Assembly (NCBI GenBank): GCA_035626855.1
Contig: DASPMW010000109.1
Span: 895 to 64,894 of the forward strand
From: Patescibacteria group bacterium
GTDB lineage: Bacteria; Pseudomonadota; Alphaproteobacteria; Micavibrionales; UBA2020
Direction: 5' to 3'
Length of the DNA: 64,000 nt
Both the position numbers and the translations under genes were made by a program. This document shows, in pieces, positions 4,669-42,428 of the stretch. The notes under the pieces were generated by a model. The model was not told the DNA's origin and searched no databases. It was given only the letters and a program-made list of their open reading frames with translations. Position 1 is the first letter of the stretch. Each line of letters starts with the position of its first letter.

Positions 4669-5447
4669 AGCGCCTTGTTTTTCTCGCTTTGTTCCTCGTT
4701 ACGACGCCGGCTTTCGCCCAGCAGATGCCGATGGCGGACGAAAATGCGCCTGTCGAAATTTCCGCAAAACATTCCCTTGAATGGAACCGCAAGGCGAAGA
4801 CCTACACCGCGCGCGAAAATGCGATTGCGAAACAGGGCAATTTCCAGGTGGCAAGCGACCTGCTGACCGCGCATTACACCGACGAAAAAGGCGCGACTGA
4901 CATCAGCACATTGGTTGCCGCCGGGAACGTCGTCATCACTTCCCCGCCCTATACCGTCCATGGCGACCAGGCGACCTATAGCGTCCCCGACAACTCTGTG
5001 CTGCTGACCGGCCGGGACCTGCGCATCGAAACGGTGACCGAACGTCTTACCGCGCGCGACAAGATCGAATTTTACGGGCGCGAGAACCGCCTGACCGCGG
5101 TCGGCGACGCGGTTGCGGTGCGCGGCACAGACACGCTGCGCGCAAACGTGATGAACGCTTTTTTCCATCAAGGGCCGGAGGGAAAGCTTGTCCTGCAGAA
5201 AATCACCGTGGACGGCAATGTCTCTATCAAAACGCTGAAGGAAACCGTGAACGGCAGCAAAGGCGTGTATGACGTCGTCGCGGGCAAGGCAATCCTGACC
5301 GGCGATATCAAGATCCTGCAGGGAGAGAACTGGCTGCAGGGCACCCGCGCGGTCGTTGACTTGAAAACAGGTATCAGCCAGTTATTTGCCGAAGGGGGCG
5401 AGGGCCGCGTCAAGGGCCTGTTCTATCCCAAGAAGAAACCGCAATGA
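4665..5447 (+). CDS. lptA: LptA / OstA-like periplasmic LPS transport protein
   Basis: 260 aa with signal peptide MKRLVFLALFLVTTPAFAQQ and an OstA-like repetitive beta pattern. Its start overlaps the lptC stop (ATGA), and it precedes lptB. Confidence 0.75.
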   Translation: MKRLVFLALFLVTTPAFAQQMPMADENAPVEISAKHSLEWNRKAKTYTARENAIAKQGNFQVASDLLTAHYTDEKGATDISTLVAAGNVVITSPPYTVHGDQATYSVPDNSVLLTGRDLRIETVTERLTARDKIEFYGRENRLTAVGDAVAVRGTDTLRANVMNAFFHQGPEGKLVLQKITVDGNVSIKTLKETVNGSKGVYDVVAGKAILTGDIKILQGENWLQGTRAVVDLKTGISQLFAEGGEGRVKGLFYPKKKPQ

Positions 5448-6211
5448 GCGACATGAAAAAAACAGCAGAGCCACAACTGGTGCCAAGCGCCGCGGGGCTT
5501 GAGGTGTCTCACCTCATGAAGCGCTACAAGCGCCGGCCGGTGCTGCGCGACGTATCGCTGACCGTAAAGCGCGGCGAGGCCGTCGGGCTGCTGGGGCCAA
5601 ACGGCGCGGGGAAAACGACCTGCTTTTATATCGTGACGGGCCTGATCGACGCCGATAGCGGCAGCATCCGGCTCGACGGCAAGGATATCACCCGCCTGCC
5701 GATGTATCGCCGCGCGCGCCTTGGAATCGGGTACCTGCCGCAGGAATCCTCGATCTTCCGGGGCCTGAGCGTCGAAGACAATATCCGCAGCATCCTGCAG
5801 GTCGTCGAAGAGGACCATCACCGCCGCGAGCATATGCTCGCCGAACTGCTGGCTGAATTTTCAATCACCCATCTGCGCAGCACGCCCGCGATCGCTCTAT
5901 CGGGCGGGGAACGCCGCCGCGTCGAAATCGCGCGCGCGCTCGCGACCCATCCGCAATTTATCCTGCTGGACGAGCCGCTCGCCGGCATCGATCCGATCGC
6001 GGTGGGCGAGATCCGCGACTTGGTGAAGCACCTGAAAAACCGCAATATCGGCGTGCTGATCACCGACCACAACGTGCGCGATACGCTGGATATCGTCGAT
6101 CGTGCCTATATCCTGCATGGCGGGCAGGTGCTGATGGAGGGCAAGCCTTCCGACATCGTCGCGCATAAGGATGTCCGCCGCGTCTATCTCGGCGAGAAAT
6201 TCAGCCTGTAA
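5444..6211 (+). CDS. lptB: LPS export ABC transporter ATPase LptB
   Basis: 255 aa with Walker A GPNGAGKTT, signature LSGGERRRVEIARAL and Walker B ILLDEP. Confidence 0.92.
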   Translation: MSDMKKTAEPQLVPSAAGLEVSHLMKRYKRRPVLRDVSLTVKRGEAVGLLGPNGAGKTTCFYIVTGLIDADSGSIRLDGKDITRLPMYRRARLGIGYLPQESSIFRGLSVEDNIRSILQVVEEDHHRREHMLAELLAEFSITHLRSTPAIALSGGERRRVEIARALATHPQFILLDEPLAGIDPIAVGEIRDLVKHLKNRNIGVLITDHNVRDTLDIVDRAYILHGGQVLMEGKPSDIVAHKDVRRVYLGEKFSL

Positions 6212-6331
6212 TATGGTATTTTAATACCTGCATCTTCACTCCGCTCCAAAAAATCCCCATATGATTAAGAGGGCCGGAGATTCCATGGCTGAAATCATGG
6301 TATTCTGGAGACGGGGAGAGTTTGATTTTAC

Positions 6332-7855
6332 ATGGCTATTAACCAGCGCCTAGACCTGAAACAGGGCCAGACCCTGACGATGACGCCGCAGCTGCAGCAG
6401 GCGATCAAGCTGTTGCAGATGTCGAATATCGAGCTGGCGGAATTCGTCGAGGCAGAGCTGGAAAAAAACCCCCTGCTGGAGCGCGACGACAGCATGTCGA
6501 CCGAGAAGCCGGGCGATGAGCCGCCGGCCGCAGAAGGCGCCGGCGACAGTGAACACGCGCCGCAGGACGACCACGGCGGCGACGCCCCGCAGCGCGAAGA
6601 GCGCGAGCTTGACACCGATTTCGAAAACGTTTTCACCGGTGGCAGCATGGCCGAGCAGGAAGGCGGCTACGACGCTTTCGCGACCAACAGCTTCAGCGAT
6701 GTCGGCAAAGGCGGCAGCCTGAAATTCGATGATCCGGACTTCGCCTTCGAGAACAATATGGCGAAGGAGGCGACCCTCCGCGATTACCTTGAAGAGCAGA
6801 TCGCCGTCGATTTCGAGGATAACAAGGAACGAGCGATCGCGCGGCTGATGCTCGATTATCTCGATGAATCTGGCTATTTCCGCACCGATACGGGCCAGCT
6901 CGCCGAGCGCTTGGGCACCACAAAGGAACGCGTCGAGGGGATCCTTGCCAAGCTGCAGGATATGGACCCGGCCGGCCTCTTCGCCCGCAATTTAAGCGAA
7001 TGCCTTGCGCTGCAGCTGAAGGAGCAGGATCGCCTTGACCCCGCCATGCAGAAACTTGTCGAGAACCTGGACGTGCTGGCGGCGCATGACCTGAAAAAGC
7101 TTAAAAGTCTGTGCGGCGTTGACGATGCAGATCTGAAGGAAATGATTTCCGAGATCAAGGCGCTCAACCCGAAGCCCGCGCTCGAATTCGATCACTTCGT
7201 GTCGCAGACCGTCGTCCCGGACGTCCTCATGCGGCCGCTGCCGAAATCCAAGGGCGGCGGGTGGGCGGTCGAGCTCAATAACGACACGCTGCCGCGCGTA
7301 CTGGTGAACAAGCGCTATTACACGGAGATCAGCAACAGCGCCAAGAACAAGACCGACAAAGAGTACCTGTCCGAGCAGCTGAACACCGCCAACTGGCTGA
7401 TCAAGGCGATGGACCAGCGCGCCGAGACGATTTTGAAAACCGCGAGCGAGATCATCTTGCAGCAGGAAGATTTCTTCAATTACGGCGTCGAATACCTGAA
7501 GCCGCTGGTGCTGAAGGATATCGCAGCCGTGATCGGGATGCATGAAAGCACCGTCAGCCGCGTCACCAGCAACAAATATATCGGCACGCCGCGCGGCGTG
7601 TTCGAGCTGAAATACTTTTTCTCCTCCGGCGTTTCATCATCGGACGGCAACGCCGAATTTTCGTCGGAAGCCGTCAAGTCCCGCATCAAAACCTATATCG
7701 ACGCGGAGCCAGCCGCGAAGATCCTGTCGGATGACGACCTCGTCGATCTCTTGAAAAAAGAGGGCATCGACATTGCCCGGCGCACAGTTGCTAAGTACCG
7801 CGAGGCTATGAAAATCCCCTCCTCCGTCCAGCGCCGCCGGATCAAGAATACATAA
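6332..7855 (+). CDS. rpoN: RNA polymerase sigma-54 factor
   Basis: 507 aa. N-terminal LKQGQTLTMTPQLQQAIKLLQMSNIEL, an acidic region II, and the C-terminal RpoN box ARRTVAKYRE. Confidence 0.95.
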   Translation: MAINQRLDLKQGQTLTMTPQLQQAIKLLQMSNIELAEFVEAELEKNPLLERDDSMSTEKPGDEPPAAEGAGDSEHAPQDDHGGDAPQREERELDTDFENVFTGGSMAEQEGGYDAFATNSFSDVGKGGSLKFDDPDFAFENNMAKEATLRDYLEEQIAVDFEDNKERAIARLMLDYLDESGYFRTDTGQLAERLGTTKERVEGILAKLQDMDPAGLFARNLSECLALQLKEQDRLDPAMQKLVENLDVLAAHDLKKLKSLCGVDDADLKEMISEIKALNPKPALEFDHFVSQTVVPDVLMRPLPKSKGGGWAVELNNDTLPRVLVNKRYYTEISNSAKNKTDKEYLSEQLNTANWLIKAMDQRAETILKTASEIILQQEDFFNYGVEYLKPLVLKDIAAVIGMHESTVSRVTSNKYIGTPRGVFELKYFFSSGVSSSDGNAEFSSEAVKSRIKTYIDAEPAAKILSDDDLVDLLKKEGIDIARRTVAKYREAMKIPSSVQRRRIKNT

Positions 7856-8024
7856 TCGCTAGGTGGCTGGAATCGCGCGGGAATCCGGTGCGAAGTTGAC
7901 GCGCCGTTCAAAAATCTATATTTATTTGAAGCAATTACCGGACTGGTGCGTTGAATTTAATGCTTTTTTCAACTGCACCTGACTAAGATAAAAATCACGG
8001 TAAACACCAATTGAGGGGACGACA

Positions 8025-8747
8025 ATGGATCTGACAGTCAAAGGCATGCACCTGGATGTGGGCGATTCACTCCGCGAGCATGTGCGCGCGAACCTGACGC
8101 ATACCGCGGGCAAATACTTCCGCGAGCCGATCAAGGCCGTCGTTGTCTTCACCAAGGAAAAGAACCATCGCTACACCGCGGATATCTCGATCCATGCCGG
8201 CCACGGCATCGTGCTCGAGGCGCAGAATGAAGCGGATGATCCCTACCCCGCTTTTGACGGTGCGTCGAAAAACGTGGCCAAGCGCCTGTCGAAATACAAG
8301 GACCGCCTGAAGGACCACCACAAGCGCCAGGGCGTGTCGGAAACGACCGCGGCCGCTTACACCACCTTCAGCAGCAGCAATGAAAACGAGGCTGAAGGCG
8401 GCCAGGAACCCGCGGTCATCGCGGAAATGGACACGCAAGTGCCGACGCTGGCTGTCGCTGACGCCGTGCTGCGCCTGGAGCTGGGCACCGCGCCCGCGCT
8501 CCTGTTCCGCAACCCGAAACATAGCGGGCTGAACATGGTGTACCGCCGCAAAGACGGGAATATCGGCTGGGTCGACCCCGAGGGTTCGGCCCCTGCTAAA
8601 AAACCCGCCACCGCAGCAAAGCCTGTCGCGAAACCGGCCGCGAAACCCGCTGCCAAGGCAGCCCCGGCAAAAGCCGCCGCGAAACCCGCGGCAAGGCATA
8701 AGCCGGCCCAGAAGAAAAAGGCGAAAGCCGGAAAGAAGAGAAGGTAA
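8025..8747 (+). CDS. hpf: Ribosome hibernation promoting factor (long form) with Ala/Lys/Pro-repeat tail
   Basis: 240 aa with an S30AE/RaiA-like N-terminal domain (MDLTVKGMHLDVGDSLREHV...). It has a long-HPF C-terminal domain (IAEMDTQVPTLAVADAVLRLEL...FRNPKHSGLNMVYRRKDGNIGWVDP) followed by AKPVAKPAAKPAAKAAPAKAAAKPAARHKPAQKKKAKAGKKRR. It lies between rpoN and ptsN. Confidence 0.85.
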   Translation: MDLTVKGMHLDVGDSLREHVRANLTHTAGKYFREPIKAVVVFTKEKNHRYTADISIHAGHGIVLEAQNEADDPYPAFDGASKNVAKRLSKYKDRLKDHHKRQGVSETTAAAYTTFSSSNENEAEGGQEPAVIAEMDTQVPTLAVADAVLRLELGTAPALLFRNPKHSGLNMVYRRKDGNIGWVDPEGSAPAKKPATAAKPVAKPAAKPAAKAAPAKAAAKPAARHKPAQKKKAKAGKKRR

Positions 8748-8815
8748 CTGCCCGAAAACAGTACAAATTGCGGGTCGACCCTTGAAAAGGCGGCCACGAC
8801 GGGCAGATAATTTGT

Positions 8816-9268
8816 ATGATCACCGCAGACCTGATTATTCCTGACCTGAAGGCCACGAGCAAAAAGCAGGCGTTCCGCTCCATTGCGGACGCCCTCGTGC
8901 CCGTCATTGGCGGCGCGCCGGAAAAGCTGTTCGACGCGCTGATGGCGCGCGAGCGCATCGGCACGACCGGTATCGGCGGGGGGGTCGCCATCCCGCATGT
9001 CAAGCTTGACCATATCGACCGCATTTATGGCGCACTGGTACGGCTTGAAACACCGGTCGATTACGACGCGATCGACGGCGCGCCGGTCGATTTGATCTTC
9101 ATGATGCTGGTGCCGGAAGAAAGTAAAACGACGCAGCACCTAAAGGTACTCGCGCGGATTTCGCGCTTCCTGAAAGACCAGCAGACCTGCAACGGCATCC
9201 GCGGCACCTGCCAGCAGGACAAGATCGCCGAGCTGCTCACCGAATGGGCGCGCAACCAGGCCGCCTGA
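8816..9268 (+). CDS. ptsN: PTS-Ntr EIIA (nitrogen regulatory IIA protein)
   Basis: 150 aa with the EIIA-Ntr pattern ERIGTTGIGGGVAIPHVKL (phospho-His context). It sits in the conserved rpoN-hpf-ptsN arrangement. Confidence 0.85.
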   Translation: MITADLIIPDLKATSKKQAFRSIADALVPVIGGAPEKLFDALMARERIGTTGIGGGVAIPHVKLDHIDRIYGALVRLETPVDYDAIDGAPVDLIFMMLVPEESKTTQHLKVLARISRFLKDQQTCNGIRGTCQQDKIAELLTEWARNQAA

Positions 9269-9281
9269 TTTCAGATTTCAA

Positions 9282-9512
9282 TTAGTGGACGGAAACGAGA
9301 TCGAGCTCATGATGGCGCGCAGAATTCTGCGCCGCGCCGGAATCCGCCTGGACGGCGAGCGCGGTGCCATCGGCTGCATGCAGCACCCAGGCCGGCTTGC
9401 CGTTGACCTGGTACTGCTTCACATAGCCGACTTCTTCAAGGCCAAGCTTCTGCAGATCCGATTGCGTCATCAGGAAGGGGATGTAATTTTCGGGCAGGAA
9501 GTTGCTTTTCAT
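9282..9512 (-). CDS. DUF1150-family small protein
   Basis: I chose the ATG at 9510-9512 (MKSNFLPENYIPFLMTQSDLQKLGLEEVGYVKQYQVNGKPAWVLHAADGTALAV...) with GAGG upstream. It lies immediately downstream of hsp20, a gene pair I recall as common in alphaproteobacteria. Confidence 0.6.
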   Translation of the reverse strand: MKSNFLPENYIPFLMTQSDLQKLGLEEVGYVKQYQVNGKPAWVLHAADGTALAVQADSGAAQNSARHHELDLVSVH

Positions 9513-9534
9513 CTGTTTACCTCGCCTTCTTATG

Positions 9535-10026
9535 TTACTTCGGCATATCTTTGTTGTCACGCGAAACATCCGCGGCGACGTCAATCGTCTGGGCTTTTTT
9601 GCCGTCTTTTCCGGACTTTATCGCGATTGTCTGAACCGTGGTTTCGGGGATGATGCGGCGCAGATCGACGTTCAGCAACCCGTTGTCGAGCGATGCGCCG
9701 ACGACCTCGATGTCCTCGCTCAGGATGAAGGAACGCTGGAACTGGCGTGTCGCGATCCCGCGATGCAGGAACAGGCGGTTTTCATCTTCCTCCGCCGTTT
9801 TGCGGCCGCGAATGACCAGCTGGTTCTGCTCGAGCTGCACGGAGAGATCATCCATCTCGAAACCCGCAACTGCTATCGTGATGCGCAGCAGCGTCTCGCT
9901 GACCTGCTCGATGTTGTAGGGCGGATAGCCTTCCGACGCTGCGCGCTGCGCGCGGTCGAGCGCGCGTTCGAACTGGTCGAAACCGAGAAGGAAAGGGCTG
10001 TCGAAAAGTGACAGGCGTCTGCTCAT
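9535..10026 (-). CDS. Small heat-shock protein, Hsp20/alpha-crystallin family
   Basis: 163 aa. YPPYNIEQVSETLLRITIAVAGF...LVIRG...FLHRGIATRQFQRSFILSEDIEV..ASLDNGLLNVDL is the IbpA/Hsp20 pattern. Confidence 0.9.
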   Translation of the reverse strand: MSRRLSLFDSPFLLGFDQFERALDRAQRAASEGYPPYNIEQVSETLLRITIAVAGFEMDDLSVQLEQNQLVIRGRKTAEEDENRLFLHRGIATRQFQRSFILSEDIEVVGASLDNGLLNVDLRRIIPETTVQTIAIKSGKDGKKAQTIDVAADVSRDNKDMPK

Positions 10027-22279: not shown

Positions 22280-22301
22280 TCTTCGACATCTTCCTGAACA
22301 A

Positions 22302-22336
22302 AACCCCGCGAGACCAATCTCGCGGGGTTTTTGTTT
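22302..22336 (+). terminator. Rho-independent terminator after rpsA
   Basis: CCCCGCGAGA-CCAA-TCTCGCGGGG hairpin (22304-22327) followed by TTTTTGTTT. Confidence 0.75.
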
Positions 22337-22420
22337 GGCGAATCAAGCGCCTGACGGTGATTCATTCCCGGTTAAACGCTTATGTAATATAATAAGGCCA
22401 GACGAAACCGGGCAGGATAT

Positions 22421-23830
22421 ATGTGGTCGCTAAAGTCACTGCTTACATGGCAACGCGATAAGCCGGACGCGGGAAAGTCGCCCGGCGTCAATGTCGATGC
22501 GCCTGTCGTCCTTGAGGCGAAATCGATGGCGGGCGCCCAGCCGCTGCTCGATTACATCAAGGGATTCGAGTGCAATTCCAACATCGCGATCGCGGCGGCA
22601 GAGGGAAAGCGCCTCGGCCCCTATTTCAACGCGCTTGGCGGCTACCTGAGCCAGGCGATCGAGCTCGACACCACGCCGCGCGCGCCCGAAGAAACCGCCG
22701 CGCTGAAGGACGCCGCGCAGCCAGAGCGCCTGCGAACCTTGTTCAACACTGTCGCGGAGAAAACACGCAACACGCTTGTATCGGATGTCGTCATCGCGCC
22801 GCTGACCGTTTTGCAAAACGGCCCCGCCGCGCATTTCTTCAAGGATCAGGACCAGTTTGCGATCGGCTATGAAACGGGCGGCCACCCGTTCAAGTTCGGC
22901 TTCCTGCAGGTCTTCGAAAACAAGCGCCCGACCGAAGGGAAAGGCAGCGTGAGCTTTCCGGTCTTCCTGCTCGATGAAGCCATGATGGACGCCGTCGCGC
23001 CGCACGCCCCCGAGGCATTGCTGCGCGGGCTGCAGAAAACCCTCGCCTTCGTGAATCACGACATGCTGCACCACCTGACGGCGCCCGTCATCAAGGGCTC
23101 GGTTGCCGCGAAAATATCACCGGACCCCGCCGCCAATGCGCTTTATTTCCCGGAGCATCCCCTGCGGCTGTGGCTGGAGCAACTACCCAAGTTCGGCGAT
23201 AACGAACTCTATGAAGAATGGGCGCAGATCAGCCATGAAGGCGCGATGCTGTCGCCCGCCAACCTTGCGCAGGTCGCGTCGCTCGACCGCGATGTAGCGC
23301 AGTTTTTTAAGGACCTCAAAACCATCGGGCAGGATATCGCCGCCGAAAAGGGCGTGCCGGCGGCGCATGAGGTTGTCGATTACTACGGCATGGTGATGGC
23401 GCATGCCCTGACCCGCGTCTTTCCCCTGCACCACCCCGTGATTGCGCGCTGCCTCGACGGCTTGCAGGCGGCCGACCCGCAGCCGGCGACGCCGGAGAAT
23501 GCCGCCGCCGACGCGGTCGGGGGAATGCGGGAAAGGCCGGATCTCGCGCTGAAAAACCTGATGCAATTGGTGACGATCAATGGCGGATTGATGCGGCTGG
23601 TCGACAATTACCGCAAGGAGGGCCTGCATATCCTGCCCGCGGAAGAAGACAAAAATCCGGACTGGAAAGGCGTCAAGCTGCTGCAGATCGCGCGGATGGC
23701 AATGGATGACGTCCACCCGCATATGCCGGAGCCGCTTAACAACAGCATGAAGGAAATGCGCGCGCAGGCGGGCCCGCAAACCGTGCGCATGTTCGGCGCA
23801 ACCGTGAAGGCTTTTACCGGCACCTGGTAA
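22421..23830 (+). CDS. Hypothetical protein (orphan, 469 aa) with C-terminal GPQTVRMF...KAFT motif
   Basis: Long ORF with coding-like codon usage and no family I recognise; His-rich patch FVNHDMLHHL. The C-terminus AQAGPQTVRMFGATVKAFTGTW resembles the tails of the four paralogs at 24151-26226. Confidence 0.55.
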   Translation: MWSLKSLLTWQRDKPDAGKSPGVNVDAPVVLEAKSMAGAQPLLDYIKGFECNSNIAIAAAEGKRLGPYFNALGGYLSQAIELDTTPRAPEETAALKDAAQPERLRTLFNTVAEKTRNTLVSDVVIAPLTVLQNGPAAHFFKDQDQFAIGYETGGHPFKFGFLQVFENKRPTEGKGSVSFPVFLLDEAMMDAVAPHAPEALLRGLQKTLAFVNHDMLHHLTAPVIKGSVAAKISPDPAANALYFPEHPLRLWLEQLPKFGDNELYEEWAQISHEGAMLSPANLAQVASLDRDVAQFFKDLKTIGQDIAAEKGVPAAHEVVDYYGMVMAHALTRVFPLHHPVIARCLDGLQAADPQPATPENAAADAVGGMRERPDLALKNLMQLVTINGGLMRLVDNYRKEGLHILPAEEDKNPDWKGVKLLQIARMAMDDVHPHMPEPLNNSMKEMRAQAGPQTVRMFGATVKAFTGTW

Positions 23831-23854
23831 TTCCCGGAACGAAAATTGCCGCCC

Positions 23855-23986
23855 GGCATTGGCTGGGCAGGGGACAAAGCTGCCTTTCCCGTGTTCAAAG
23901 ACACAGTTCAGGTCGCTTTGTTTCCAACCGTTTCGGCCCTTGTGGCCGCGAGAGAAGATCCAAGGCTCACGCCTTGGATCTTTTTC
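23855..23986 (+). ncRNA. Candidate small RNA, tandem copy 1 (conserved 5' region, 5-bp hairpin, intrinsic terminator)
   Basis: GGCATTGGCT...GTGTTCAAAG...TTTCGGCCCTTGTGGCCGCGAGAGAAGATCCAAGGCTCACGCCTTGGATCTTTTTC. The 12-bp stem AAGATCCAAGGC/GCCTTGGATCTT plus a T-run is a + strand terminator. The unit is repeated at 24018-24141. Confidence 0.4.
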
Positions 23987-24017
23987 TTTGTTCACTTGGG
24001 AACGACATGCCGCGCTG

Positions 24018-24141
24018 GGCATTGGCTATGCAGGAACCGAGAGCATATCAGTGTTCAATCACAGATATATTCTCGTTTCCGCTAGTTTCGGTCCTCGTGA
24101 CCGCGAGAGAAGATCCAAGGCTCACGCCTTGGATCTTTTTC
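24018..24141 (+). ncRNA. Candidate small RNA, tandem copy 2
   Basis: GGCATTGGCT...GTGTTCAATC...TTTCGGTCCTCGTGACCGCGAGAGAAGATCCAAGGCTCACGCCTTGGATCTTTTTC. The last 41 nt are identical to copy 1. The upstream hairpin is CGGTC/GACCG against CGGCC/GGCCG in copy 1 (a compensatory change). A possible -35/-10 pair is TTGGCT-N16-CATATC. Confidence 0.4.
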
Positions 24142-24150
24142 GCATTCGGG

Positions 24151-24612
24151 TCACGACCTGCGCGTGAATTTCGCGGTGCCGGGTCCTGAAATGGGTTGGG
24201 TGAGCTTCATGGCGGGTGGCTGGAACGGCGGTGGCGGCGGTTTTGGCGCGGCAGCATACTGCGCTGCAAGGCCTGCCAGGATATTCTGGCGGCTGCCCTC
24301 ATAGGCGGGCCGGATAAAGTTGCTCCAGCGTCTGTTCGCATCCGCGTCATTCTCCTCCAGCGCCACGCGATCGGCCTGAAAGAGCGGTGTGACGGCCGTG
24401 GAATAGGCCTCGCTGGTGGTCAGAGGTCGGCCGTCCTTTATTCCGTATGACCCCTTCTGCGCCAGACCTGCAAGGCGTTCGAGATTGGCGGCGCCCTCAT
24501 TAAACAGCGCGGCGATTCCCTTGTGTTGCGCATGCAGCGCCTGGAACTGCAGCAGGTCGCGAAAATCCTCAAGCGTATTCACCTCGTAGGATTCGAGCGG
24601 CCGGGCGGTCAT
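24151..24612 (-). CDS. Orphan paralog D (153 aa) of the four-gene small-protein array
   Basis: LERLAGLAQKGSYGIKDGRPLTTSEAY..., a Pro-rich linker, and the C-terminus PISGPGTAKFTRRS. The start overlaps the stop of the upstream paralog as ATGA (24609-24612). Confidence 0.6.
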   Translation of the reverse strand: MTARPLESYEVNTLEDFRDLLQFQALHAQHKGIAALFNEGAANLERLAGLAQKGSYGIKDGRPLTTSEAYSTAVTPLFQADRVALEENDADANRRWSNFIRPAYEGSRQNILAGLAAQYAAAPKPPPPPFQPPAMKLTQPISGPGTAKFTRRS

Positions 24613-25052
24613 GGCGTTTCCCGGCGGAAATGCGCTGTTGGCGGCGCGGGGACGGGATGCGTCAGTAGCATCGGCGCAGTCAGCGGCACAGGCAACACGC
24701 CGGGTCCATGCGCCTTCTCCAGCGCGGTCAGGATCTGGTTTTTATTACGGGCGAAATCGGTCAGCAGGCCGCGCGCAGCCTCGGCGCCGGCCTCATCCTT
24801 CTCCATCTTTGCAGCGCTGATTGCCTCTCCGATGGGAGCCTGCGCGTGGTTGTAGGCGTCGACAAGCGTGAGCGGCGTGCCGTCCTCGGCCGCGCCGAAA
24901 TCTCCCTGCCAGGCCTGGCTTTCCATGCGCCGCAGCCGGACTGCGCTTTCAGTGAAAAGCGCGCTGAGGGCGGGTGTCCGCGCATGGCGCGATTCCATCA
25001 TCACAAGCCCGGCCAGCGCTTCCAGCGAAATCAGGTTGACCGGTCCCGTCAT
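24609..25052 (-). CDS. Orphan paralog C (147 aa)
   Basis: LRRMESQAWQGDFGAAEDGTPLTLVDAY... with the C-terminus PVPAPPTAHFRRETP. There is an ATGA overlap at 25049-25052. Confidence 0.6.
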   Translation of the reverse strand: MTGPVNLISLEALAGLVMMESRHARTPALSALFTESAVRLRRMESQAWQGDFGAAEDGTPLTLVDAYNHAQAPIGEAISAAKMEKDEAGAEAARGLLTDFARNKNQILTALEKAHGPGVLPVPLTAPMLLTHPVPAPPTAHFRRETP

Positions 25053-25801
25053 GGCGCGGCCCGCTTGCGAAACTGCGCTGTTTTCGGGGCGGAAACGGGG
25101 CCCGCGGACGCCATGTTGTAAACCGGCTTGCGCGCCTTCGCCAGGAACTCGCTCGTCGCGGCGTCATGGCGCATGACGAGGTGGCTTTTCATTCTTTCGC
25201 CATCCTGCGCGAGCCATTTATTTATCTCCTGCAGGTGCAGGCCGAGGCTCCCTTCCGACATTGCGGCCGCCATGTTGAGGTTATCATAGGGCTTGAAGAT
25301 CGCGCTCCATGCTTCCGCCAGCGTCTGTTCGCGGTCGGCGACGCGACCGTAGCTGCCCTTGGCCGTCTGCCACTGCAGCTCCTGTAACCCCTCCGCCATC
25401 TTGCCGAGCGTCCCGCCTGCCACATCCTTGTCCTTGGCACGAAGCAGGTCGATAAGACCGCCCAGCCGCTTTGTCCCGGGCTCTGCGCCGGGAACCTGGC
25501 GTTTCAGCTCGTGCATGGCGTCGGAGGCGAAGGCGAGAAAGACGTCGAAGGCTTCCCGAAGCGGGCCCTTCTCGGGCAGGTCGGAAAAAGCGCTGAGCAA
25601 GGCCTGAGAATCCCTGCGCAGCGTGTCGGCGTCGAGCCTGCCTGCCGATGCGTCATCTTCCATGCGGCGCAGGGTTTGCGCCCAGCGCCGGTATTCGCCT
25701 GCACTCAGCACGCCCGGCGTGACATCTGCCGCATAGTTAAAAAGGTCGCGAAGAATGGCAACGCTGTGAAAGTCGGCATGGGTTTGCGGTTGCGCGGTCA
25801 T
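25049..25801 (-). CDS. Orphan paralog B (250 aa, internally duplicated version)
   Basis: The second half reads LQELQWQTAKGSYGRVADREQTLAEAW... and ends GPVSAPKTAQFRKRAAP. The first half (RRWAQTLRRMEDDASAGRLDADTL) resembles the same module. There is an ATGA overlap at 25798-25801. Confidence 0.6.
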   Translation of the reverse strand: MTAQPQTHADFHSVAILRDLFNYAADVTPGVLSAGEYRRWAQTLRRMEDDASAGRLDADTLRRDSQALLSAFSDLPEKGPLREAFDVFLAFASDAMHELKRQVPGAEPGTKRLGGLIDLLRAKDKDVAGGTLGKMAEGLQELQWQTAKGSYGRVADREQTLAEAWSAIFKPYDNLNMAAAMSEGSLGLHLQEINKWLAQDGERMKSHLVMRHDAATSEFLAKARKPVYNMASAGPVSAPKTAQFRKRAAP

Positions 25802-26226
25802 GCGCCCAGCTTCTGCCGCGGCCGGAAGCGCGCGGTCACCGGCGCCGCGATCGGCTGCGGCTGGCTTGCCGCAGTTGCGAGATCATGTGTTTCCTCCAGC
25901 GCCTGGCGCATGGGCCCGCCCATCCACTGGAAGGACTTGAGGACATCTTCCCACTGCTCGAAAAGCCCGGGGCGGCCGGCATCGGCCAGCGCGCGGACTT
26001 GGTTGGCCGGGGCGACCACATAGTCGAGGGCGTCATCGAGCGATGCGGATTTTCCGCCGATAGTGCCGTAGCTGCCCTTCTGCACAAGGGTGCTCAGGTC
26101 GCTGAACCGCTGCGCCGACTGCGCGTAGAGGGTTTTTGCATCGGGATCCGTCGATTTGTCTGCGGAGGCATTAAAAAGGGCCTGAAAGCGCTCAACCCGC
26201 CACCATTCGATCTCTTTTCCAGCCAT
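25798..26226 (-). CDS. Orphan paralog A (142 aa from ATG 26226)
   Basis: FSDLSTLVQKGSYGTIGGKSASLDDAL... with the C-terminus PIAAPVTARFRPRQKLGA. I prefer the ATG at 26224-26226 (GGGGGGA 6-7 nt upstream) to the TTG at 26244. Confidence 0.6.
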   Translation of the reverse strand: MAGKEIEWWRVERFQALFNASADKSTDPDAKTLYAQSAQRFSDLSTLVQKGSYGTIGGKSASLDDALDYVVAPANQVRALADAGRPGLFEQWEDVLKSFQWMGGPMRQALEETHDLATAASQPQPIAAPVTARFRPRQKLGA

Positions 26227-26303
26227 GCGATTCCCCCCTAACAAAGGCAGGTACAGTATAGCCGGTTATGTAAACTTGTCAAACGGGCGGGAATTGTGAA
26301 ATA

Positions 26304-26492
26304 TTATTTCACGATCTTCAGTTCGGTCTTGGCGAGGAATTTAAACACGCCTTCAAGCGATTCCTGGTACTCCTCCCACCGCTTTTGCTGGTCGGCGCGG
26401 GGCAGCCCGGCGATGTCGGGCCGGGCGAGGAAGGTTTCGCAGATCGTGTGCTCGCCGAAATATTCGCAGGCCCGGGCGGTGGAGCGCTTCAT
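26304..26492 (-). CDS. Hypothetical 62-aa protein
   Basis: MKRSTARACEYFGEHTICETFLARPDIAGLPRADQQKRWEEYQESLEGVFKFLAKTELKIVK. Third-position GC is high, and the start lies 11 nt after the stop of the membrane-protein gene. Confidence 0.5.
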   Translation of the reverse strand: MKRSTARACEYFGEHTICETFLARPDIAGLPRADQQKRWEEYQESLEGVFKFLAKTELKIVK

Positions 26493-26503
26493 GGAATGGA
26501 TCC

Positions 26504-30188: not shown

Positions 30189-30998
30189 CTAATTATTAGC
30201 TACATCTTCCAAATATTTGTCTTCAAGCTCTTCCAAACTCTTAAATTCGTAGCGCACATGATATTTGGAAGTTTGAAGAGTCTCGGAAATTTTGTTCTTT
30301 ATCGCGGAAACAATAGCGGGAGTTCCATCAGCAACAAGGAAAAGTAAGTAATCTCTATTGCGAGTACCCCCCATCTCCATCATATCCACAAGCTGGCGAC
30401 TTTGATCCGCTTTAGCCAAGACATTATCAATTTGGCTCTTGTCGCTGATCAGCTTAACTTCAATATGAATTCTGTCCTTAGAATTAGGCTTGCTGACAAC
30501 AAAATCGTAACCGGAATCTAGTTGAACGCTTCTTCTCGCAAAGTCTTCGCGAACATTCTCATACCCATATGTATCTTTCAGATATTCCGAAAGTAATGCT
30601 TGGGCCAAGTATTCTTTCCCAATAAATTGCGCTACCGCATTTGCTCTAGCTCGTACGGTGGGGGGATTAGACGATGCGCCAGTATTGCTTAGCGAAGGAT
30701 CGAAATCCTCCATGTTTTCTAGAAGGCTACCCTTTTTATAAGTATTAAATCCTTCATCCGTTCTAAAATCCTGAGGGCCATAAATTTTGCCGGGGTGTTT
30801 AGTAACGAGTTTAAAAAAAACGTGCAGCAGCAAAATTGGGTAGCCAATCAAAAACAGTATAAGCATCGACTGCAGGCAAATATGAAGTTGGGAAAGGCTA
30901 TCTTTTAGGACATAACCGTAAATCGCATAAATAAGCGTAATGAAAAGGCCGACTACTCCTAACGGGCCCTTAATTACCTTTAGATCTGAACTGAACAT
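30189..30998 (-). CDS. Membrane-anchored orphan protein with PD-(D/E)xK-like motif, in an AT-rich insert
   Basis: The ATG at 30996-30998 (MFSSDLKVIKGPLGVVGLFITLIYAIYGYVL...) lies 1 nt after the Trm112 stop, with GGAGG inside the Trm112 3' end. It has two or three N-terminal TM helices, and the C-terminal domain carries GYDFVVSKPNSKDRIHIEVKL (D...ExK). The DNA is clearly AT-rich relative to its flanks. Confidence 0.55.
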   Translation of the reverse strand: MFSSDLKVIKGPLGVVGLFITLIYAIYGYVLKDSLSQLHICLQSMLILFLIGYPILLLHVFFKLVTKHPGKIYGPQDFRTDEGFNTYKKGSLLENMEDFDPSLSNTGASSNPPTVRARANAVAQFIGKEYLAQALLSEYLKDTYGYENVREDFARRSVQLDSGYDFVVSKPNSKDRIHIEVKLISDKSQIDNVLAKADQSRQLVDMMEMGGTRNRDYLLFLVADGTPAIVSAIKNKISETLQTSKYHVRYEFKSLEELEDKYLEDVANN

Positions 30999-30999
30999 T

Positions 31000-31188
31000 C
31001 TAATCCTCCAGCTTCCGGGCCTCATCCACCAGCATGATCGGAATCCCCTCGCGGATCGGGAAGGCGAGCTTTGCCTGGCGGCTGATCAGCTCCTGCTTCG
31101 CCGCGTCATATTCCAGCGGCGCCTTGGTCAGCGGGCAGACGAGGATTTCGAGCAGCTTCGGGTCGGCGAATTTCGCGGGTCCGGTCAT
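31000..31188 (-). CDS. Trm112/YcaR-family small zinc-ribbon-like protein
   Basis: 62 aa. [47 protein letters not shown] is the UPF0434/Trm112 pattern. Confidence 0.8.
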
Positions 31189-37709: not shown

Positions 37710-40700
37710 TTAAACGACGATCGTGCCGGAGCCAACGAGGGCAGTCTCGTCCGTGCCGAGGTTGACGCCGGTGAGGGTTGCGATCTGCACCCAGCGCGTG
37801 CCGTTTGCCGTGCCATCCGCATCGACGCGGATGATGGTGTTGGCACCCTGGTTGATGACCTGCAGGTAGTCCTCGATCGGGCCGCCCGGGCTGCCCAGGA
37901 TCGCGGAAACGTCGATCACGTCGCCTTGGCCGACGTTGAAGTCGGTCACGGTGTCGCGGCCGTTCGCGGTCGAGGTGAACAAGAAGGTATCGGCATCCGC
38001 GCCGCCGGTCAGGCGGTCGTTGCCGAGGCCGCCGTCGAGGAAGTCGCCGCCCAGGCCGCCGAGCAGCGTATCGTTGCCGCCGAGGCCGGAGAGGGTGTTG
38101 ATGCCGTCGTTGCCGGTGAGCGTGTTGGCAACCGAGTTACCCGTGCCGTCGAGATCGAGCACGCCCGTCAGCAGCAGTTTTTCGAGGCCGGTCGCCAGCG
38201 TGACGTCGATCGTCGAGGAAGTGACGGTATCAACGCCGTTGCTGTCGATGATCACGTCGCCTAAGTCGTCAACGACATAGGTGTCGTTGCCGGCGAGGCC
38301 GATCAGCGTATCCGCGCCGCCGCCGCCGTCGAGCGTGTTGATGCCCGAGGTGCCGGTGATCGTGTTGGTGTTGGCGTTGCCGGTGCCGTTCAGGGCGCCG
38401 TTGCCGGTGAGCACCAGGTTGTCGATCAAGGCATCTGACTGCGCGCCGCCCAGATCGAAGCTGATGCTGGAGCGGACAGTATCGGTGCTGGTCGCCGAGC
38501 CTTCAACGCTGTCACCGACGTTATCGACCACGAAGGTGACGTTGTTGAGGCCGCCGCCCGCGTTGACCATGACATCCGCGCCCGCGCCGCCGTTGAGGGT
38601 GACGTTCGCGCCGACTGCTTCCGAGGTCAGCGTGTTGTCGCCGGTGCCGCCCGTGAGGGTGCCTGCGCCGGTGATGACGCCGTTCTCGATATTGGCCGAG
38701 AGCGTATAGGTGCCGTTCGATTCGACGGTGTCATCGCCTTCGCCGGCTGCTTCGGAAACCACATCGGTCGAGGAGTCGACGACGTAGTAATCGTCGCCCA
38801 TGCCGCCGATGAGGCGATCGTTGCCGCCGCCGCCGTCGAGCGTGTCGTTGCCGCCAAGGCCGGTCAGGGTGTTGTTGCCCGTGTTGCCGGTGATGACGTC
38901 ATCATCGTTCGTGCCGGTGATGTTGATGTTCCCCGTGCCGGTTGCGATCACGTTCTCGAGGTTGCTGCCGGTCAGCGTGTAGTTGACGGAGGTGAAGAGC
39001 GTATCGTCGCCTTCGCCCAGCAGCTCGGTCACGACGTCGCCCGCGTTGTCGACATAGTAGGTGTCGTCGCCGTCGCCGCCGGTCATGCTGTCCGCGCCGG
39101 TGCCGCCGTCGAGCGTATCGTTGCCGAGGCCGGATTCCAGCGTGTCGTTGCCGCCAAGGCCGTTCAGGACGTTGTCGCCGTCGGTGCCCGTGATCGAGTT
39201 GTCGGAGGCGTTGCCGGTGCCATCGATCGCGCCGACGACCAGGGTGTCGAGAATGAGGTTCTCGACGCCCGCGCCGAGCGTCAGGGAAACGCTGGAGAAC
39301 GCGGTGTCGTTGCCGCCGCCGAGGTCGGTGACCACGTCGCCGACGTTATCGACGATGAAGTAGTCGTTGCCCGCGCCGCCTTCCATCGAGTCCGCGCCGG
39401 CGAGGCCGTCGAGCGTGTTGTTGCCCGAGTTGCCGACCAAGGTGTTGACCGAGGCATTGCCGGTTGCGTTGAAGTCGCCGGTGCCCGACAGGGTCACATT
39501 CTCGAACTCAGCTGCCGCGGTGTAGGAGTAGCCGGCGACGACGGTATCGTTGCCTTGACCCGCCACTTCCGAGAGCACATCGCCGGGGTTGTCGGTGACG
39601 TAGGTATCGTCGCCCGTGCCGCCGATGAGCGTATCGACGCCCGCGCCGCCATCGAGCGTGTTGTTGCCCGAGTTGCCGGTGATGGTGTTGGCGGCCGCGT
39701 TGCCGGTGCCGTTGATGTTGGCGGTGCCGGTGAGGTTGAGGATTTCAACTTCGCTGGTGCCGCTCAGGGTGTAGCTGACCGAGGCGTTGACGGTATCGGT
39801 GCCTTCGCCCGCGTTTTCGAATACCTGGTCGCCGGCGTTATCGACGAAGTAGAGGTCGTTGCCTGCGCCGCCGGACATCGCGTCCGCGCCGCCCATGCCG
39901 TCGATCGTGTTGGCGTTACCGTTGCCGGTGATGACGTTCGCGCCGGCATCGCCGATGGCGGTGACAGCCGCACCGGTGATGGTCAGGTTCTCGATGTTGC
40001 CGGACAGGGTGTAGTCGACCGAGGAAATCACGGTATCGGTGCCCTGGCCTGCCAGTTCGGAAACGACGTCGAGGGAGCTGTCAACGACGTAGGCATCGTT
40101 GCCGAGACCGCCGATCATGGTGTCGTCGCCCGTGCCGCCGTCGAGGCTGTCATTGCCGTCGCCGCCCGACAGGATGTCGATATCCGCGCCGCCCGACAGC
40201 GTATCCTGGCCGTCGCCGCCCGACAGGACGTCGTTGCCGGCGAGGCCGGTGAGGGTGTTGTTCGACGCGTTGCCGGTGATGATGTTGGCGTCGCCATTGC
40301 CCGTGCCGATGAGAGCGGTGCCGGTCAGGGTCAGGTTATCGACATCGGTCGTGCCAGCCGCGCCCAGGTCCCAGTTGATGCTGGAGCGGACTTCGTCGCC
40401 GGCAAGGTTGCCGTCAACGGTATCAAGCGCGTTGTCGACGACGAACACGGTGCGAATGTAAGCGCTGGTGCTGCTCATCGTGTCCGCGCCTGTGCCGCCA
40501 TCGAGCGTTTCGGTGCCGCTGACGCCGTACTTGGTGCTCGGCGTTCCATTAACGTTGTTGACCAGCGTGTCGTTGCCATCGCCGCCCAGCAGGATGTTGT
40601 TCACCGAGGGTTCGCCGAAAAAGGCGCCGTTGAAGGTGGAGTTGTCGGTGATGACGTTCGCGCCGGTGTTGCCCGTCGCGGTCATCGCGAGCGCGCCGTA

Positions 40701-42164
40701 TTTCTGTGCATCGCCTTCCAGCGTCAGGTTTTCGAGGTTACCGGACAGGGTATAGGAGGTGTTGTTGCGCAGAATAACCGTATCTGTGCCGGCCGCAGCG
40801 TCTTCCGAGACGATGTCGCCATTGTTGTAGATGATGTAAACATCGTTGCCTGCGCCGCCAATGAGCGTATCGGTGCCGCCCGCGCCGCCGCCATCAAGCG
40901 TATTGGCGAGCGCGTTGCCGGTCAGGACGTTGGAGCCGGTCGTGCCAACCGCGGTCGAGCCTGCAATGGCTGACGCGGTGAGCGTGAGGTTTTCGACGTT
41001 GGAAACGGTGGCGCCCTGGAGGCTCAGCGTCACATCGGAGAGGATAGTGTCGGTGCCGTCGCCGCCGTCAACGACTTCCGCGCCGCTGTGGACGAGGAGC
41101 GTGTCATTGCCGTCGCCGCCATTCAGCGTGTCGTTGCCCGAGACGCCATCGAGCGTGTTGTTGCCGGAGTTGCCGGTGATGATGTTCACGGACGCGTTGC
41201 CGGTGCCGTTGAAGTTGCCGGTGCCGGTCAGGGTAAGGTTTTCGAAGTTCGCGCTGAGGGTTGTCGTGAAGCCCGCGTTCACGGTGTCGGTGCCTTCCGC
41301 CGCCGCTTCGGTGATGCTGTCGGACGCGTTGTCGAGGAAGTAGGTGTCGTCGCCGAGACCGCCCGCCATGCTGTCGTTGCCCGCGCCGCCTTCCAGCGTG
41401 TCGTTGCCGTCGCCGCCAACGAGCGTGTCGTTCGCGCCGCCGCCGTCTAGCGTGTTGCCGAGGTCGTTCGCCGTAATCACGTTCGCGCCGGTGCTGCCGG
41501 TCGCGGTTGCGCCCGCGCCTGCGGCTGCGGAGAGCGTGAGGTTCTCGACGCCCGCGCTCTGGGTAGCAAGGCTCCAGCTGACATCCGAAACGATAAGGTC
41601 GGATGCGCCGTTCGCGCCGGTCACGGTGTCGCCCGTGCTGCCAACCAGGAAGGTGGTGTTGCCGCCGCCGGTGCCCGACATGATGTCGGAGCCCGCGCCG
41701 CCATCCAGCGTGTTGCTGCCGGCGGATGCGTTGATGAGCGTGTTGGCAAGGCCGTTGCCCGTCAGCGTGAGGCCGGTACCGGAGGTGATAGTGCCGTTCT
41801 CGATGAAATCGCCGAGGGTGTAGGTGACGGATGCGCGCACCGAATCAATGCCGCCGCCATCCGTGGTGGCGTCGGTTTCATCCGCGACGTCGAGGATGCT
41901 GTCGACGACATAGGTATCGTTGCCGTCGCCGCCGTACATGTAGTCGTCGCCGGTGCCGCCATCGAGGGAGTCGTTGCCGTCGCCGCCCAGCAGCGTGTCG
42001 TCATTCGCGTCGCCGTTCAGGGTGTCGTTGCCATTGCCGCCGTCAACGATGTCGTTTCCTGCGCCGCCATTGGCCGTGTCATTGCCTTTGTCGAGAAGGA
42101 TAACGTCTGCACCCGCGGTGCCGTTAAGAGAGTCGCTGCCGGTAGTGCCTTTGACGGTTGCCAT
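37710..42164 (-). CDS. Giant RTX (hemolysin-type calcium-binding repeat) protein, putative T1SS substrate
   Basis: 1484 aa consisting almost entirely of GGxGxDxUx nonapeptides (GGAGNDTLNGG..., GGDGNDTYVVD...). These are arranged in about 14 larger modules, each ending ...YTLSxxxENLTLTGxxxxxGTGN. It has no Cys and is acidic. The C-terminus (DVIDVSAILG...TIIRVDADGTANGTRWVQIATLTGV...GSGTIVV) is typical of a non-cleaved T1SS signal region. Confidence 0.9.
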   Translation of the reverse strand: MATVKGTTGSDSLNGTAGADVILLDKGNDTANGGAGNDIVDGGNGNDTLNGDANDDTLLGGDGNDSLDGGTGDDYMYGGDGNDTYVVDSILDVADETDATTDGGGIDSVRASVTYTLGDFIENGTITSGTGLTLTGNGLANTLINASAGSNTLDGGAGSDIMSGTGGGNTTFLVGSTGDTVTGANGASDLIVSDVSWSLATQSAGVENLTLSAAAGAGATATGSTGANVITANDLGNTLDGGGANDTLVGGDGNDTLEGGAGNDSMAGGLGDDTYFLDNASDSITEAAAEGTDTVNAGFTTTLSANFENLTLTGTGNFNGTGNASVNIITGNSGNNTLDGVSGNDTLNGGDGNDTLLVHSGAEVVDGGDGTDTILSDVTLSLQGATVSNVENLTLTASAIAGSTAVGTTGSNVLTGNALANTLDGGGAGGTDTLIGGAGNDVYIIYNNGDIVSEDAAAGTDTVILRNNTSYTLSGNLENLTLEGDAQKYGALAMTATGNTGANVITDNSTFNGAFFGEPSVNNILLGGDGNDTLVNNVNGTPSTKYGVSGTETLDGGTGADTMSSTSAYIRTVFVVDNALDTVDGNLAGDEVRSSINWDLGAAGTTDVDNLTLTGTALIGTGNGDANIITGNASNNTLTGLAGNDVLSGGDGQDTLSGGADIDILSGGDGNDSLDGGTGDDTMIGGLGNDAYVVDSSLDVVSELAGQGTDTVISSVDYTLSGNIENLTITGAAVTAIGDAGANVITGNGNANTIDGMGGADAMSGGAGNDLYFVDNAGDQVFENAGEGTDTVNASVSYTLSGTSEVEILNLTGTANINGTGNAAANTITGNSGNNTLDGGAGVDTLIGGTGDDTYVTDNPGDVLSEVAGQGNDTVVAGYSYTAAAEFENVTLSGTGDFNATGNASVNTLVGNSGNNTLDGLAGADSMEGGAGNDYFIVDNVGDVVTDLGGGNDTAFSSVSLTLGAGVENLILDTLVVGAIDGTGNASDNSITGTDGDNVLNGLGGNDTLESGLGNDTLDGGTGADSMTGGDGDDTYYVDNAGDVVTELLGEGDDTLFTSVNYTLTGSNLENVIATGTGNINITGTNDDDVITGNTGNNTLTGLGGNDTLDGGGGNDRLIGGMGDDYYVVDSSTDVVSEAAGEGDDTVESNGTYTLSANIENGVITGAGTLTGGTGDNTLTSEAVGANVTLNGGAGADVMVNAGGGLNNVTFVVDNVGDSVEGSATSTDTVRSSISFDLGGAQSDALIDNLVLTGNGALNGTGNANTNTITGTSGINTLDGGGGADTLIGLAGNDTYVVDDLGDVIIDSNGVDTVTSSTIDVTLATGLEKLLLTGVLDLDGTGNSVANTLTGNDGINTLSGLGGNDTLLGGLGGDFLDGGLGNDRLTGGADADTFLFTSTANGRDTVTDFNVGQGDVIDVSAILGSPGGPIEDYLQVINQGANTIIRVDADGTANGTRWVQIATLTGVNLGTDETALVGSGTIVV

Positions 42165-42428
42165 GTTTGTGAAGTCCTCTGGGTTGTGAATTTATGACTG
42201 TGTGGACGGTGTCCTGTTGAATCCTAGACGGCAAATATACGCAGATTCCCTCGGCTTGAAAATGGAATTATCCTCGTCGCCGCGCGGGTGGCCTGCGATT
42301 GCAAGACTTCACCCATGCGCCGTCAGTTATGGGCAATCCTTCCCGGCCGCATGAATTTGCCTTGGCAATGCGCGGGTGCTAATGGTGATTTTGTCGTCTG
42401 GTTCCCCGCATCGCGATATAAAGTTCTT

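Follow-up and report, generated by a model that had tools for sequence, protein, structure and literature searches.

A 320-nt gap between a 469-aa gene (22421-23830, + strand) and a convergent 153-aa gene (24151-24612, - strand) holds two direct repeats, and the question that this locus raises is whether the repeats are small RNA (sRNA) genes in their own right, elements that serve the flanking genes, or mobile sequence. We addressed it in the window, i.e., the whole stretch of 64,000 nt of DNA that was analyzed, and in the corresponding loci of related genomes. The preliminary description had placed the repeats at 23855-23986 and 24018-24141 on the + strand, and both positions were borne out. 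It had also reported an identical 41-nt 3' end, and indeed the 64-kb window contains CCGCGAGAGAAGATCCAAGGCTCACGCCTTGGATCTTTTTC two times and no more, on the + strand in both cases (23946-23986 and 24101-24141), while 100 shuffles of the window gave no match to this 41-mer with up to three mismatches. Likewise, the common blocks GGCATTGGCT, GTGTTCAA, and GTTTCC follow one another in the same order at these two sites only in the window and at no site in the shuffles. The two 3' modules are as follows.

23946-23986, + strand: 41-nt 3' module of copy 1, consisting of the purine tract GAGAGAAGA, a terminator hairpin, and a U-run
24101-24141, + strand: identical 41-nt 3' module of copy 2, ending 10 nt before the stop codon of 24151-24612 (-)

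Each module carries a GC-rich stem with a 4-nt loop, and the T-run lies 3' of the hairpin on the + strand only, in agreement with the terminator orientation that had been proposed. A terminator consensus scan reported copy 1, and copy 2 has the identical stem with a shorter T-run. Read on the - strand, the hairpin of copy 2 is followed by the pyrimidine-rich CUUCUCUC, so judging from the sequence the copy 2 terminator may also end the convergent operon by bidirectional termination. Besides, the compensatory change described for the short hairpin just upstream is real: CGGCC/GGCCG in copy 1 corresponds to CGGTC/GACCG in copy 2, a double change from C-G to U-A. Both flanking genes (22421-23830, +, and 24151-24612, -) are without a Pfam match. 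A Logan contig of the same organism (L006, 1494-1604) ends inside the 41-nt repeat, as would be expected if the duplicated terminator broke the assembly graph.

When the whole repeats were folded, a long 5' hairpin (SL1) that had been overlooked in the first reading was found in both copies. The transcript length of about 95 nt given earlier is too short, since conserved promoter-like boxes lie about 30 nt further upstream; the predicted RNAs, with the long 5' hairpin included, are thus about 125 and 114 nt. The predicted RNAs and their parts are listed below.

23865-23989, + strand: sRNA 1, about 125 nt, supported by its fold, a model match of 119.6 bits, and covariation; its 5' end is predicted to within a few nucleotides
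23870-23925, + strand: SL1 of sRNA 1, with the apical part GUGUU-CAAA-GACAC
23926-23933, + strand: single-stranded linker of sRNA 1, containing GUUU
23934-23948, + strand: second hairpin (SL2) of sRNA 1
23950-23989, + strand: terminator and U-run of sRNA 1
24028-24141, + strand: sRNA 2, about 114 nt, supported by its fold, a model match of 109.2 bits, and covariation
24030-24082, + strand: SL1 of sRNA 2, with the apical part GUG-UUCAAU-CAC
24083-24088, + strand: linker of sRNA 2
24089-24103, + strand: SL2 of sRNA 2
24107-24141, + strand: terminator of sRNA 2

The refined transcripts fold far more stably than their shuffles, with z values of -5.3 (sRNA 1) and -7.9 (sRNA 2). In SL1, the foot (CAGGrA paired with UUUCC) is conserved and the tip GUGUUCAA is invariant, and between the two copies the stem shows many compensatory changes. 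Its middle part reads CAAAGC-UGCC/GGUC-GCUUUG in copy 1 and CGAGAG-CAUAUC/GAUAU-UUCUCG in copy 2, which differs widely from copy 1 and yet pairs.

Homologs were sought in relatives. The rpsA protein of the window places it in a Micavibrio-like alphaproteobacterial lineage that is represented by metagenome assemblies only. The proteins of the source contig are labeled 'Patescibacteria group bacterium' at NCBI, whereas the window resembles Micavibrio and other Alphaproteobacteria in its nearest rpsA relatives, its gene order, and its GC content, and the label is probably a taxonomic mislabel or the result of misbinning. We reached the loci of relatives by synteny through rpsA; the 469-aa neighbor was unusable for this purpose, as its homologs are at most 42% identical (except for one identical Logan fragment) and an exact look-up was empty. 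The gene order GGDEF/EAL-aroA-cmk-rpsA ... YgjP-like-leuA is conserved in relatives. In a sister lineage with rpsA 97% identical, represented by three assemblies (GCA_029945425.1 and two from ENA; L007, L008, and L009), the same RNA occurs twice downstream of rpsA: copy A lies between the rpsA terminator and a cupin gene, and copy B lies just after the cupin gene.

These homologs, together with the two window copies, gave eight sequences, and the arrangement SL1-linker-SL2-terminator was obtained by individual folding of each one of them (8/8). We built a covariance model from the eight (the two of the window and copies A and B of L007-L009) and used its alignment for the counts. Standard pairs were formed in 95% of the cells, compared with 44 to 57% when the partners were slid by 1 to 3 columns, and 11 pairs were changed on both sides, compared with 5.2 ± 1.5 in shuffles (none of 500 reached 11); these counts are to be read against the fact that the eight sequences represent only about four independent types and that the alignment was fitted to the structure. 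In SL2, three of the five pairs covary. The core of the earlier proposal, that a pair of paralogous, structured small RNAs is encoded on the + strand and that each ends in a terminator of its own, is upheld, and it is strengthened by the homologs and the covariation.

The strand call needs a separate argument, since the thermodynamics favor neither strand: both DNA strands fold equally well. It is carried by the U-run, the promoter, and an excess of G-U and U-G cells (41) over A-C and C-A cells (7), an excess that fits an RNA of the + strand and disfavors an RNA of the - strand or a palindrome at the DNA level. A reading as a small open reading frame (ORF) was ruled out, because the homologs differ by indels of 2, 3, and 5 nt, not all of them multiples of three, so that a coding function is excluded. 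Sequence identity between the window and the sister lineage is 73 to 76%, no higher than that of the best-conserved ordinary intergenic region (77%).

Upstream of each predicted RNA, we found the following promoter-like elements.

23836-23864, + strand: promoter-like element of sRNA 1, GGAAC (23836-23840), 16-nt spacer, and CATTGGCT (23857-23864); boxes invariant in 8/8 homologs
23999-24027, + strand: promoter-like element of sRNA 2, GGAAC (23999-24003), 16-nt spacer, and CATTGGCT (24020-24027); boxes invariant in 8/8 homologs

The element of sRNA 1 begins 5 nt past the stop codon of the 469-aa gene, and that of sRNA 2 comes directly after the sRNA 1 terminator. The boxes are identical between the window copies and the spacer matches at 8 of 16 positions; in the full alignment GGAAC and GCATTGGC are invariant and the spacer is variable. 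Since there is a complete terminator before copy A of L007 (that of rpsA) and another before sRNA 2 (that of sRNA 1), each needs a promoter of its own. A start about 5 to 8 nt past CATT would coincide with the foot of SL1.

The combination of GGAAC and CATT(G/A)G, 16 to 17 nt apart and with diverged spacers, was found in seven instances, namely, the four sRNA types, one more distant Micavibrio sp. metagenome-assembled genome (L013), and an RTX-like gene in two genomes, and their consensus is (G)GGAAC-N16/17-CATT(G/A)GC. A spacer of 17 nt separates the boxes in L007-L009; all other instances (the window copies, L013, and the two RTX sites) have one of 16 nt. Promoters of extracytoplasmic function (ECF) sigma factors are defined by AAC at -35 and CGT at -10 (PMC8103513), and the EcfG consensus is GGAAC-N16-CGTT (PMC3892343, PMC5869019). 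All seven instances have AAC at -35, within GGAAC, and a fixed spacing of 16 to 17 nt with a drifting spacer, those of the RTX sites being largely diverged. At -10, CGT is replaced by CAT(T) in all seven, a conserved departure of a single base, and because of this departure in every instance we name the element ECF-like and withhold an assignment to EcfG. From its sequence, what precedes both sRNA copies resembles a promoter of the ECF-sigma type and is a candidate for one. No ECF sigma gene was seen among the ten window ORFs of 159 to 228 aa that were scanned, nor any sigma-factor domain among the 26 window ORFs scanned.

Two other promoter types did not hold up. The sigma-70 promoter TTGGCT-N16-CATATC suggested in the preliminary description is present in copy 2 only and sits inside the conserved 5' stem; the equivalent hexamer in copy 1 reads TGCCTT, and that of the B-type homologs reads CTTCGG. 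A sigma-54 promoter (GG-N10-GC, with GG at -24 and GC at -12) was rejected as well, as it is readable only in the two window copies, as GGCAT-N5-(G/T)GCA; the GG is CG in copies A and B of L007-L009, and the GC is missing in L013.

The motif in L013, at 6208-6313 on the + strand, deserves mention by itself. There, GGAAC-N16-CATTGG is kept downstream of rpsA, and the hairpin that comes after it (16 bp, U7 tail, z = -7.5) is an unrelated one; it may represent another sRNA of this regulon or be a remnant.

The remaining instance in the window belongs to the RTX-like gene.

42378-42406, - strand: third instance of the promoter type, GGGAAC, 16-nt spacer ending in CAC, and CATTAGCA; kept in the sister genome (L130), with the spacer diverged

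About 215 nt separate this third GGAAC-N16-CATT (42405-42381, - strand), located in a divergent intergenic region, from the RTX-like gene downstream of it (HemolysinCabind; 37710-42164, - strand), which encodes 1,484 aa and is full of repeats with a 27-nt period. In L130, the orthologous locus is at 5317-9729 (-) and the promoter-like motif at 9950-9978 (-), with GGGAAC and CACCATTAGCA conserved at the same spacing and the spacer diverged. The presence of the same promoter type before the RTX-like gene in both genomes suggests a regulon shared with the sRNAs. Apart from this motif, the leader or promoter region of the gene contains a 34-nt block, GGAATCTGCGTATATTTGCCGTCTAGGATTCAAC (42216-42249, -, in the window and about 9787-9820, -, in L130), which is identical at 32 of 34 positions between the genomes and has an invariant 29-nt core (CTGCG...TTCAAC) within otherwise diverged intergenic DNA. 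The block might be an RNA element, or it might serve as an operator or an additional promoter.

The sRNA pair lies in a variable surrounding, in which the immediate neighbors are the following.

22421-23830, + strand: upstream 469-aa gene, without a known domain and without a terminator of its own before sRNA 1
24151-26244, - strand: convergent array of four orphan genes (153, 147, 250, and 148 aa), fast-evolving paralogs

The four paralogs of the array have KGSYG and C-terminal A-x-F-R-R motifs in common, and they are 28 to 48% identical to their counterparts in genomes with rpsA 91 to 97% identical. A variable island extends from rpsA to a conserved 372-aa gene (22280-26500 in the window and 7807-10650 in L007). 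It is also found downstream of rpsA in seven other relatives (L010, L013, L014, L017, L025, L026, and L029), and its cargo differs with the lineage: a 469-aa or 707- to 718-aa orphan, a cupin, a glyoxalase, a 245-aa protein, or nothing. Elsewhere in the window, a 278-aa ORF (30189-31025, -) has a third-position GC of 0.41, compared with 0.7 to 0.8 in its neighbors, and lies in a 2-kb dip of GC to 0.52; it gave no NCBIfam match, and this region may be foreign DNA.

How far the family extends was examined in several collections. In Rfam 15 at the gathering threshold, the whole window gave only tRNAs, and at an E value of ≤10 the gap had a single + strand match, in which 18 nt fitted a viral pseudoknot model by chance. 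The element was absent at this locus from lineages with rpsA 85 to 91% identical. No further copies were found in 16 sources of 211 kb in total, made up of the 64-kb window and 15 loci from relatives, or in L026-L029. Among GTDB representative genomes, which were scanned with a stricter 5' pattern, GGCATTGGCT..GTGTTCAA..GTTTCC gave five matches, which is about the chance expectation, and the two that were inspected (L004 and L001) were without a terminator or promoter. The source genome itself was unmatched there, so this collection is uninformative on the copy number in the source genome. In JGI metagenomes, a promoter-free pattern of the RNA body gave five unrelated matches, three of which are GTTTCCAGC tandem repeats, and in IMG/VR viral contigs about 100 chance matches were obtained, of which 80 were rescored with the covariance model and all failed (best E value, 0.058). 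Because no copies appear beyond the known loci in the DNA searched, the family is narrow and not dispersed within reach of these data; among the loci compared, it is confined to two close lineages. The REP-like dispersal that had been named as the case against an sRNA was not seen: across the 64-kb window and DNA of relatives amounting to about 250 kb, the element is present at this locus only.

The two copies of each lineage can be matched with those of the other. Copy 1 and type A have a long SL1 and a CCA-CC linker in common, and copy 2 and type B have a short SL1 and a CCG-yyAG linker in common. The identity of the 5' parts is 70.6% between copy 1 and A and 77.9% between copy 2 and B, compared with 63.5% between the window copies. 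The 3' modules show the opposite pattern, with identities of 92.5% (window) and 90.7% (sister lineage) within a genome and 70 to 77% between genomes, which points to homogenization between the two copies. Judging from these identities, the pair probably goes back to an old duplication that predates the split from the sister lineage, the terminator modules of each genome having been homogenized later; independent duplications are a less likely alternative. One gene pair would thus display two processes, terminator modules evolving in concert and 5' stems diverging by compensatory change.

We compared the RNAs with known systems of similar layout. AbcR1 and AbcR2 of Rhizobiales are head-to-tail paralogous sRNAs with their own terminators and a layout of hairpin, single strand, hairpin, and terminator, and the loop of their first hairpin carries the motif M1 (CUCCCA), while the stretch between this hairpin and the second one carries M2 (GUUCCC) (PMC5461406). 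The RNAs described here are also two head-to-tail paralogs with their own terminators and the same hairpin layout. However, the M1 and M2 hexamers are found in none of the eight RNAs, in which the loop is UUCAAU and the linker has GUUU(C/U)G. AbcR lies downstream of the LysR-type gene vtlR, whereas the neighbors here are rpsA, the 469-aa orphan, and the orphan array, with no LysR domain; the promoter type is another one, and there is no Rfam match even at an E value of ≤10. The AbcR analogy drawn in the preliminary description is therefore architectural only, as CUCCCA, GUUCCC, a LysR neighbor, and an Rfam match are all absent.

sRNAs that depend on sigma-EcfG are known in Alphaproteobacteria (PMC5869019, PMC3892343). 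GsrN of Caulobacter and ReC64 of Rhizobium etli resemble the present RNAs in being alphaproteobacterial, about 90 to 125 nt long, and built with a 5' hairpin first and an intrinsic terminator last (PMC5869019, PMC3892343). They also have a GGAAC-N16/17-C(G/A)TT promoter sequence in front, and they are coregulated with protein genes of the same sigma regulon (PMC5869019, PMC3892343), as the RNAs described here may be with the RTX-like gene. A near-consensus sigma-EcfG site upstream of an sRNA of the GsrN type is GGAAC-N15-17-CGTT, whereas every copy here has GGAAC and a spacing of 16 to 17 nt with CATT as the -10 box. The C-rich loop of the 5' hairpin that defines GsrN (PMC5869019) is absent, the loop being UUCAAU, or CAAA in copy 1; the distinction from GsrN drawn here is one of promoter and loop features. 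Proximity to ecfG-nepR-phyR, which is usual and not universal, was not seen nearby among the 26 window ORFs scanned. AbcR and GsrN membership thus fail on defining features, and the predicted RNAs form an undescribed sRNA family of a familiar kind.

A possible functional parallel is offered by Enterobacteria, in which the sigma-E-dependent sRNAs MicA, RybB, and MicL form the noncoding arm of an ECF-sigma regulon, and MicL starts at a promoter placed in the 3' end of the upstream gene. The promoter of sRNA 1 would likewise be at the 3' end of the upstream gene, while the sequences and the phylum are unrelated to those of the sigma-E sRNAs.

Taken together, it is reasonably probable that the gap holds two separate sibling sRNA genes on the + strand, each with a promoter of the ECF-sigma type, that their products are trans-acting riboregulators, and that the RTX-like gene is driven along with them. 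Each gene would have its own promoter GGAAC-N16-CATTGGCT with a start at the SL1 foot, and SL1 would be followed by the GUUU linker, the 5-bp hairpin SL2, the purine tract AGAGAAGA, and the intrinsic terminator with its U-tail. An alternative sigma factor of the ECF type would switch on both RNAs, and the same factor might drive the RTX-like secreted-protein gene (37710-42164). The RNAs would act in trans as riboregulators, with the invariant SL1 loop and the linker as putative contact surfaces, and the U-tail together with the AAG/AGA/AGA tract is a plausible binding module for a chaperone of the Hfq type. A cis role on the flanking genes is possible for termination only: the sRNA 1 terminator may also end the upstream 469-aa gene, and that of sRNA 2 probably serves the convergent operon too. 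When targets were sought with RNAduplex in the RTX leaders and in 50 translation-initiation regions, all of the duplexes obtained were full-length and unrealistic, and they were discarded.

Other readings of the locus were weighed against this one. The RNAs might be real and independent and nevertheless work by sequestering a protein or as an RNA sponge instead of pairing with mRNAs. The absence of a convincing target in the window agrees with such a role, as do the most conserved unpaired sequence, the UUCAA of the SL1 loop, which is neither Shine-Dalgarno-like nor C-rich, and the same-sense UUCAA inside the conserved 34-nt block of the RTX leader. However, a repeated motif for protein binding, as in CsrB or 6S, is absent from the RNAs, and base-pairing sRNAs such as AbcR usually have the same layout, in which a single strand separates two hairpins and a terminator with U-tail comes last (PMC5461406), so that we consider sequestration conceivable, if unlikely. 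It is rather unlikely that the repeats are 3' modules acting in cis only, i.e., terminators or 3' untranslated region stabilizers of the flanking genes that are chance duplicates with neither a transcript of their own nor a function in trans. A terminator needs no 85 nt of conserved, covarying upstream structure and no invariant loop, bipartite promoter boxes are conserved before every copy, and read-through would reach neither copy A of L007, which has the complete rpsA terminator before it, nor sRNA 2, which has the sRNA 1 terminator before it. What speaks for the cis reading is placement: the unit of sRNA 1 starts 5 nt past the stop codon of a gene without another terminator, copy B of L007 is placed likewise behind the cupin gene, and the 3' hairpin is 10 nt from the convergent stop codon and pyrimidine-rich on its other side.

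Two further explanations fare worse. A small mobile or REP/MITE-like intergenic repeat that carries a terminator by chance would suit a variable island whose gene content is different in every lineage, the identity of the 3' module between copies, and the break of a metagenome assembly inside the element. Against this, the 64-kb window has two copies only and the loci of relatives, about 250 kb in all, have none elsewhere, terminal inverted repeats and target duplications are absent, pattern scans of GTDB, JGI metagenomes, and viral contigs gave no real match, and the place next to rpsA is conserved between species; we regard this explanation as very improbable. That the repeats are 5' leaders (attenuators or riboswitches) of a downstream gene hardly seems credible, since three of the four copy types (both window copies and B) have no downstream gene on the same strand and no Rfam riboswitch matches, even though copy A of L007 with its terminator does lie about 45 nt upstream of the ribosome-binding site of the cupin gene.

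Returning to the two sibling sRNA genes, their meaning for this group of bacteria can be considered at several levels. A remote possibility is that the invariant UUCAA loop and the 34-nt block of the RTX leader bind a common factor. Going further, one may speculate that the sRNAs and the RTX-like secreted protein are the core of a lineage-specific ECF-sigma regulon that controls the phase of attack or attachment in a Micavibrio-like epibiotic predator, a doubtful proposal at present; if it were true, no riboregulators would have been linked with predation in alphaproteobacterial predators before these sRNAs. Among the top-ranked full-text literature matches, no paper links Micavibrio with small RNAs, and in predatory Alphaproteobacteria of the Micavibrio type riboregulation appears to be undescribed. 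Regulators of this type are already known; what is new is a predicted family of sibling sRNAs and a promoter signature in an understudied predatory lineage. The group thereby gains a structurally supported candidate sRNA family and, in the large RTX-like calcium-binding protein, a first candidate for a coregulated gene, and the signature GGAAC-N16/17-CATT(G/A)GC can be used to trace an alternative-sigma regulon in uncultured Micavibrio-like genomes.
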